Part shown: positions 60,884-61,138 of the stretch, piece by piece
How positions within the stretch are numbered: the first letter of the stretch is position 1
Layout of the letters: each line of letters begins with the position of its first letter
Origin: Enterobacteria phage CHB7
Reading direction: 5' to 3' (one strand)
DNA length: 64,000 bases
Sequence record: MK562504.1
Position numbers and translations under genes: made by a program
Notes under the pieces: model-generated
Seen by the model: the letters and a program-made list of their open reading frames with translations, nothing else
The model's database searches: none
What the model was told of the DNA's origin: nothing

Positions 60884-60960
60884 TGGTGCAGAATAAGGGA
60901 TTCGAACCCCTAACAAACAACTTCGTAGGTTGCTGCTCTATCCGTTTGAACTAATTCTGC
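60884..60960 (-). tRNA. tRNA-Arg (ACG)
   Basis: Clean cloverleaf: acceptor GCAGAAT/ATTCTGC, D-stem GTTC/GAGC, anticodon loop CTACGAA, T-loop TTCGAAT, CCA. Confidence 0.75.
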
Positions 60961-61138
60961 AATGTTCTTTTGAGATTCCTGTCTAGCTCTCTTCTTATCT
61001 CTTCTGAGAAAGCGTCTACGATGGTCTGTACGCCATTTGTAGTAATCTTCCTCACCAGCGTGAGAAGCACAGCAACCACAACTTGCAATTTCAACTTTAC
61101 CGTGTCTACCATAAGGCTTCATAGGAATCTCCTAAAAT

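Follow-up and report, generated by a model that had tools for sequence, protein, structure and literature searches.

The 70-codon open reading frame (ORF) between the tRNA-Leu(CAA) and tRNA-Arg(ACG) genes of Enterobacteria phage CHB7 (MK562504.1) is, with a probability that we put at roughly three in four, a genuine gene of the phrog_10765 family, with a functional core of about 55 residues, which appears to have lost its stop codon through an 82-nt deletion and to be translated into tRNA-Arg up to a TAG within the latter. In the window, by which we mean the whole 64,000-nt stretch of DNA that was analyzed, the ORF lies on the minus strand at 60910..61122 and runs from ATG to TAG; its translation is exactly that quoted in the earlier note, in which this frame was singled out. 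It is enclosed by two tRNA genes of the same strand, namely tRNA-Leu(CAA) directly upstream (61139..61216, minus) and tRNA-Arg(ACG) downstream (60884..60960, minus). The 3' end of the former lies 16 nt before the ATG at 61122, and this spacer, AUUUUAGGAGAUUCCU, contains the Shine-Dalgarno sequence (SD) AGGAGA (61128..61133, minus), which starts 5 nt past the CCA end of tRNA-Leu and stands 5 nt 5' of the ATG, the good spacing that had been claimed for it. The description of tRNA-Arg as well-formed also holds: ARAGORN predicts the gene with the anticodon ACG, its CCA is encoded, and it matches the Rfam model RF00005 over model positions 1-71 as a complete cloverleaf without non-canonical pairs, with 59.6 bits (gathering score 29; E = 4e-12).

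The overlap between the ORF and tRNA-Arg spans 51 nt, with the first base of codon 55 being nucleotide 1 of the tRNA. Hence, codons 1-54 (60961..61122, minus), which constitute the protein core, precede the tRNA, while codons 55-70 (A55-C70; 60913..60960, minus) coincide with its nucleotides 1-48 and, together with the stop, with nucleotides 1-51. The TAG itself (60910..60912, minus) falls where the variable loop meets the T-stem, and is used by all 18 alleles of the 70-aa type. The overlap of 17 codons reported earlier is accordingly real, albeit with the stop codon included in the count, as the tRNA encodes 16 sense codons. By our estimate, a 70-codon open frame would arise by chance in a 255-nt stretch with a frequency of a few percent per frame; since this length is not very improbable, the case for a real gene rests on comparative evidence.

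The window derives from a Suspvirus (Ounavirinae), and the region is 98.8% identical to that of Escherichia phage SUSP2 and matches 250 records of Felix-O1-like phages. The predicted protein aligns from residue 1 to 70 with profile positions 1-70 of 70 of phrog_10765 (PHROGs v4; E = 3e-50), whose members represent the same family at full length and in the same slot between tRNA-Leu(CAA) and tRNA-Arg(ACG), with no sequence difference. In tblastn searches the ORF was recovered from 41 phage records, all from Suspvirus or Mooglevirus, with 88-99% amino-acid identity; the alignment extends to residue 69 or 70 in 40 of these GenBank records, and in Silverhawkium alone it ends at residue 56. Existing annotations are uneven: SUSP2, mistaenkt, EcSzw-2 and other records list the ORF as a "hypothetical protein" that extends into tRNA-Arg (the named records of the family include SUSP2 ALH47157.1, mistaenkt_112 and the homologue of Moogle gp84), and it is without annotation in KMM2, KMM4, HP1 and Sf14. 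Searches of Pfam, NCBIfam and PDB sequences with both the protein and the family profile gave no match. Our literature search brought up no work dealing with this ORF, with overlaps of ORFs and tRNAs in Ounavirinae or with the small genes of SUSP1/SUSP2, and neither ribosome footprints nor peptides of the ORF. The gene is already in the databases as a hypothetical protein, and what is new here is the evidence of its reality and an account of how the overlap originated.

To assemble a comparative dataset, the spacers between tRNA-Leu and tRNA-Arg were collected from GenBank, IMG/VR and metagenome loci and aligned, with the alignment column as the unit for counting variants. Scanning viral and metagenome contigs contributed few additional alleles, such that the available diversity amounts to 18 distinct alleles of the N-terminal part. 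Across these, codons 1-54 contain 30 distinct nucleotide variants, of which 20 fall in third codon positions, and which comprise 18 synonymous and 12 nonsynonymous changes. As only 0.19 (no transition bias) to 0.26 (kappa 4) of the changes would be expected to be synonymous, this excess has a P value of 8e-7 to 7e-5 and marks the core as subject to purifying selection. When read in frames +1 and +2, these variants yield 3/27 and 7/23 synonymous/nonsynonymous changes, respectively, with no coding signal. The nonsynonymous replacements are mostly conservative (R/K, S/A/T, D/E, N/D and Q/R), and the only indel within codons 1-54 is an in-frame deletion of 3 nt in Sf14, which results in a 69-aa product. 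The block AGGAGA-N5-ATG is unchanged across all alleles of both the 70-aa form and the 80-aa form described below, with AGGAGAUUCCUAUG being invariant while the A/T (A/U) run directly upstream of it differs in length through indels. Conservation of the frame in related phages, which the earlier note had named among the checks to be made, was found in 18/18 of the 70-aa-type alleles, all of which also retain an intact SD and ATG.

Independent support for a protein-level origin of this conservation comes from distant homologues. Searching 1.8 billion representative proteins exhaustively with HMMER recovered two distant relatives with 41-46% identity (E = 8e-7 and 1e-5), and a profile search added two more, giving a set (P0005-P0008) with 38-46% identity to the window's protein. 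Their real lengths are 60-63 aa, as P0008, called with 52 aa, is in fact a 63-aa ORF that was cut short in gene calling, and they align to residues 1-56 only, sharing the motif MKP[YFL]G..GK[VL]E[IM]A.CGCC...R...K..ARQ. They occur in unrelated phage contigs with a different nucleotide sequence and possess their own stop codons (specified for P0005, P0006 and P0008); P0005 and P0008 (loci L024 and L026) are additionally equipped with an SD and an intrinsic terminator. No homologue of this set abuts a tRNA. The frame-specific coding signature, the intact alleles and these free-standing relatives speak against the spurious frame that the earlier note had considered as one of its two options.

As an aside, one of these loci (L026; sites 2549..2871 and 3968..4159; compare 310..501 in L024) belongs to an unrelated phage contig of ~77 kb with an SU10-type portal, in which the 63-aa homologue is encoded about 1.1 kb downstream of a cluster of four tRNAs (Asn, Tyr, Ile and Gln) on the same strand and ends in an intrinsic terminator converging on the terminase gene. 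It is this homologue that the gene caller had cut to 52 aa, the start at MKPFGKGGKLE being located further upstream.

The C-terminal tail presents a different picture. The 51 shared nucleotides contain 8 variants, which in the frame of the ORF amount to 2 synonymous and 6 nonsynonymous changes, with the resulting replacements being T60M, A63T, T65A/I, V69A and C70S. In contrast to this apparent laxity at the protein level, the stems of the 18 distinct tRNA-Arg alleles show standard pairs in 378/378 cells, as against 43-61% when the partner is slid by 1-3 columns as a control, and three pairs have changed on both sides in a compensatory manner. All tail variants fit the pairing of the tRNA. Thus, on the variant counts, the tail is without protein-level constraint, a passenger that changes along with the tRNA. 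Constraint in both readings of the overlapped segment, as expected of an adaptive overlapping gene, was not found among these alleles. Of the second option of the earlier note, a small protein encoded in overlap with a tRNA, the protein is upheld by its coding signature, intact alleles and homologues, whereas the overlapping part shows no conservation at the amino-acid level. Among the three frames in which tRNA-Arg could be entered, the one in use happens to have the most distant stop (17 codons versus 3 and 7), so the length of the tail is a matter of chance. A separate peculiarity was noticed in one tRNA-Arg allele (L009, L015 and L033, from IMG/VR and an ENA contig of 89,280 bp), which ends in ...CUGCACAAA rather than ...CUGCACCAA; its genomic CCA end is disrupted (CAA), and its maturation would hence need the CCA-adding enzyme of the host.

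The likely origin of the overlap is revealed by a longer allele of the same gene, with 80 aa, which is present in Silverhawkium (a Mooglevirus; L004) and in at least ten further contigs, L038-L043 among them; the named records are Silverhawkium_gp86 and AB2J12_25360 of E. coli CP164854.1. Residues 1-55 of this form are 91-93% identical to the window's protein, and its SD, ATG and flanking tRNAs are the same, but it has 82 extra nucleotides, which encode KDFRESVLSRRDTNEELKLYGVLIG, and its own TAA is positioned 1 nt before tRNA-Arg, so that there is no overlap at all. Alignment of the two types of spacer shows a single 82-nt gap with TGC at both sides, in the context ...AATAT[TGC]TAAAGAT...GGATAA[TGC]AGAATTAG..., and in the window the corresponding TGC (60959..60961, minus) is located precisely where codon 54 abuts nucleotide 1 of the tRNA. 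The N-terminal alleles do not sort by form but are mixed between genomes of the 70-aa and the 80-aa type, which implies recombination within the phage population.

A third form is found at the same locus in Felixounavirus, where a 35-aa ORF (phrog_13848) follows the same SD/ATG block after tRNA-Leu (L002, from Salmonella phage D1-2, at 2150..2257 on the minus strand of the locus; also L027, L028, L031 and L034). Residues 50-80 of the 80-aa protein match phrog_13848 (E = 5e-4), and the 35-aa ORF without its initial Met aligns with them gaplessly, with 58-62% nucleotide and at most 58% amino-acid identity. The Felixounavirus form thus covers residues 50-80 and the 70-aa form residues 1-55, with residues 50-55 being common to both. 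The 35-aa ORF likewise terminates inside tRNA-Arg, with a TAG at tRNA nucleotides 8-10, but the overlap is just 10 nt; it also differs in lacking the CGCC core, as codons 2-49 are absent, which is an in-frame difference. Its coding signature is weaker (8 synonymous and 11 nonsynonymous variants), and it is open in 4/4 of the distinct alleles seen.

The simplest history suggested by these alignments is that an ancestor of about 80 codons, with a stop 1 nt before tRNA-Arg, gave rise to both the Felixounavirus and the window forms. In the lineage of the window, a deletion of 82 nt between the two TGC triplets would have removed the C-terminal module together with the stop codon, thereby joining codon 54 to nucleotide 1 of tRNA-Arg, and reading would then run through 48 nt of the tRNA to the TAG. 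The Felixounavirus form would have arisen from the ~80-aa ancestor by the in-frame loss of codons 2-49. That the indel was a deletion and not an insertion is inferred with one outgroup form as the basis.

Such a history raises the possibility that the 80-aa form is the functional one and that the 70-aa frame is a young pseudogene that has yet to acquire disabling mutations. The loss of 25 native codons and the stop, the unconstrained tail, and the truncation of the message that RNase P processing would be expected to cause are all in line with this. We nevertheless consider it improbable, as the 70-aa form predominates in both genera in which it occurs (40 of the 41 GenBank records), all of its 18 alleles are intact with their sole indel in frame, and these alleles by themselves retain 16 synonymous against 12 nonsynonymous variants (P = 6.6e-5), although selection after the deletion is not strictly proven by this count since some of the polymorphisms may be older than the deletion. 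Moreover, the distant homologues end at about residue 60-63, which places the deleted module outside the conserved core, and the independent loss of the other half in Felixounavirus suggests that the two modules are separable.

Turning to expression of what we favor as a genuine, truncated and tRNA-terminated gene, a scan for promoter- and terminator-like sites between the flanking tRNAs found none, with regional counts at background level. It is therefore most likely that the ORF is co-transcribed with both tRNAs, within a polycistronic tRNA/mRNA precursor. From what is generally known of E. coli, RNase P would cut between 60961 and 60960 and thereby strip the last 16 codons and the stop from the message. 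Full-length protein could then be made only from unprocessed RNA, which is plausible for ribosomes following close behind the polymerase, whereas the processed RNA would be a non-stop mRNA, presumably rescued by tmRNA. Ribosomes that translate as far as the TAG would, for their part, hold tRNA-Arg unfolded until they leave. Translation and maturation of tRNA-Arg might hence compete on each transcript. Given that the 80-aa allele without the overlap coexists with the overlapping one, the overlap is not required; the allele of the window still has the core of ~55 residues in full.

Folding predictions add a possible further element to this picture. In the predicted fold of the spacer, GAGAUUCCU (61123..61131, minus), which takes in part of the SD, pairs without mismatch with AGGAAUCUC (60972..60980, minus; codons 48-51), and the two form a long-range stem of 9 bp that closes the spacer, the pairing probability being about 1; in the prediction for the full precursor the tRNA still folds separately from this stem. 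In Felixounavirus (L002), a different SD flank, GAGAACACUAUG, pairs with UAUGGUGUUCUU at the 3' end of its own 35-aa ORF in a predicted stem of 12 bp including G.U pairs. The overall folding z-score of the spacer is -2.2. When compared with codon-order shuffles, sequestration of the SD is not an unusual property in itself (P = 0.07-0.17). What does stand out is that the first 19 nt pair with the last 30 nt, which was equaled in 2/300 such shuffles for the 70-aa form and 1/300 for Felixounavirus, in a test devised post hoc with the fold already seen and with both arms invariant within each form. The stem may be treated as a lead, and could serve to mask the SD, to insulate the spacer or in processing.

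If the overlap were a selected device, it might be kept as a mutually exclusive switch between translation and processing, possibly gated by the stem that sequesters the SD. Its fixation in most Suspvirus and Mooglevirus genomes, the termination of the Felixounavirus 35-aa ORF inside the same tRNA (TAG at tRNA nucleotides 8-10), and the pairing between the SD flank and the spacer's 3' end in both forms despite their different sequences would be compatible with such a device. We regard it as unlikely, since an allele free of the overlap coexists in the same phage population, the tail is unconstrained with a read-through length set by nothing more than where the first in-frame stop falls, occlusion of the SD is not significant on its own, and the stem, besides having been identified post hoc, offers no within-form covariation with both of its arms invariant. 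The more specific version, in which the stem sets the balance of a selected switch and the product of the processed RNA is tagged by tmRNA, is to our mind equally doubtful.

The weakest alternative, that the spacer is non-coding and conserved for an RNA role as a processing or insulating hairpin with the frame being accidental, could draw on the chance plausibility of 70 open codons in a spacer as short and AT-rich as this one, on the predicted 9-bp closing stem with a 5'/3' closure that is rare in shuffles, and on the common practice of curators to discard tRNA-overlapping ORFs (PMC9409062), but is very improbable given that RNA structure would not give three-periodic substitutions and a synonymous excess in the frame of the ORF only, that the indel is in frame with the SD and ATG invariant at a fixed spacing, that the folding z-score is just -2.2 with SD pairing not unusual in shuffles, and that protein homologues of ~40% identity exist in unrelated contigs with no adjoining tRNA, the coding signature and these homologues together effectively ruling out both a chance frame and an RNA-only cause of the conservation.

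With respect to the protein itself, C15, C17 and C18 are invariant (CGCC, within an A-x-CGCC motif), and the predicted helix that comes after them is strongly basic. Set against the four conserved Cys/His ligands of a zinc-knuckle or zinc-ribbon peptide, a fourth invariant ligand is missing, as H21 gives way to Y in the distant homologue P0007 and to P in P0002; this region is modelled with low confidence. AlphaFold2 applied to a 9-sequence alignment gave an N-terminal coil and one long helix, with a mean pLDDT of 64 and a pTM of 0.31; the basic stretch RRRFLRRDKKRARQ lies inside this helix with a local pLDDT of 71-83 in what is a low-confidence model overall. A lipoprotein signal peptide was also considered, as residues 12-15 (I-A-S-C) resemble a lipobox, and was rejected since residues 1-14, MKPYGRHGKVEIAS, are charged and polar and lack the hydrophobic h-region, of some 7 residues or more, that should precede the cysteine of a lipobox. 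As a tentative guess, the invariant cysteines and the basic helix might be those of a small nucleic-acid-binding, possibly metal-binding, accessory protein.

Protein genes residing in tRNA operons are known from E. coli, namely in tyrT-tpr, which encodes a small protamine-like protein, and in thrU-tyrU-glyT-thrT-tufB. The tRNA cluster of phage T4 comparably contains interspersed ORFs such as segB (PMC2330249). The window's ORF resembles these cases if, as proposed, it is co-transcribed with tRNAs, the ORFs and tRNAs of such operons being separated by RNase P and RNase E, and its product is likewise small and very basic, as is that of tpr. It differs in that the coding regions and tRNAs of the E. 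coli and T4 systems share no nucleotides, whereas here the stop lies 48 nt inside the tRNA; a 51-nt same-strand overlap with the stop within a functional tRNA is unusual. A further parallel is offered by mitochondrial "tRNA punctuation", wherein the excision of tRNAs sets the 3' end of the upstream mRNA and overlaps between mRNA and tRNA occur. Mitochondria complete the affected stop codons by polyadenylation, and we know of no such mechanism in E. coli. What the mitochondrial and tmRNA systems would have in common with the window's ORF is a message cut before its stop, proposed here to become a substrate of ribosome rescue; the rescue of non-stop mRNAs by tmRNA in bacteria is well described (PMC3985003).

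For annotation, the significance of this case is that it would represent a real gene of a kind that is usually discarded: same-strand ORFs overlapping tRNAs are routinely treated as artefacts (PMC9409062), and several GenBank records of related phages omit this one. In evolutionary terms, it appears to offer a clean and datable instance of stop-codon loss by a microhomology deletion, in which a structural RNA gene came to supply the C-terminus and the stop, with the three states of 80, 70 and 35 aa all persisting among related phages. For RNA biology, it could serve as a natural test case in which ribosomes, RNase P and rescue meet on one RNA, with alleles available that have or lack the overlap. 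On the whole, we see it as an evolutionary accident and not as a new kind of coding system, and it changes no major concept.

Several further observations concern the neighborhood of the gene. The last 5 kb of the window (58936..63982) contain 21 tRNA genes, all on the minus strand, with spacings of 2-30 nt and a few ORFs in between; among sigma-70-like promoter matches in this cluster, the one at 63152..63124 is the best (11/12), in a setting where promoter-like counts are overall at background. A plus-strand 105-aa ORF (60970..61287) and other short frames were dismissed as candidates, as they run antisense through tRNA genes and have no coding signature. On the other side of tRNA-Arg, a listed 204-aa ORF with a TTG start (60306..60920, minus) overlaps this tRNA as an artefact of upstream extension: the annotated homologue has 185 aa and starts at the ATG at 60863, 20 nt past the CCA of tRNA-Arg, and is labelled "holin" in HP1 and VOG0370 in mistaenkt. 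Silverhawkium, Sf14 and KMM2 lack this 185-aa gene in the interval from tRNA-Arg to tRNA-Gln, and its place is taken by a 75-aa ORF in KMM4, SFPB and ESh21, while HP1 has both. A 172-aa ORF with a GTG start (62025..62543, minus) similarly spans tRNA-Ser(TGA) (62389..62475), and its true start is likely to be an internal ATG (MKKGSVGE..., at about 62366), 22 nt past tRNA-Ser, which would give a protein of 113 aa. Finally, the CP164854.1 record (L039; 88,055 bp, GCA_046116215.1), which is labelled as an E. coli plasmid, contains the 80-aa allele in the same tRNA/DUF7217 neighborhood, and is evidently the complete genome of a Mooglevirus-like lytic phage deposited as a plasmid.
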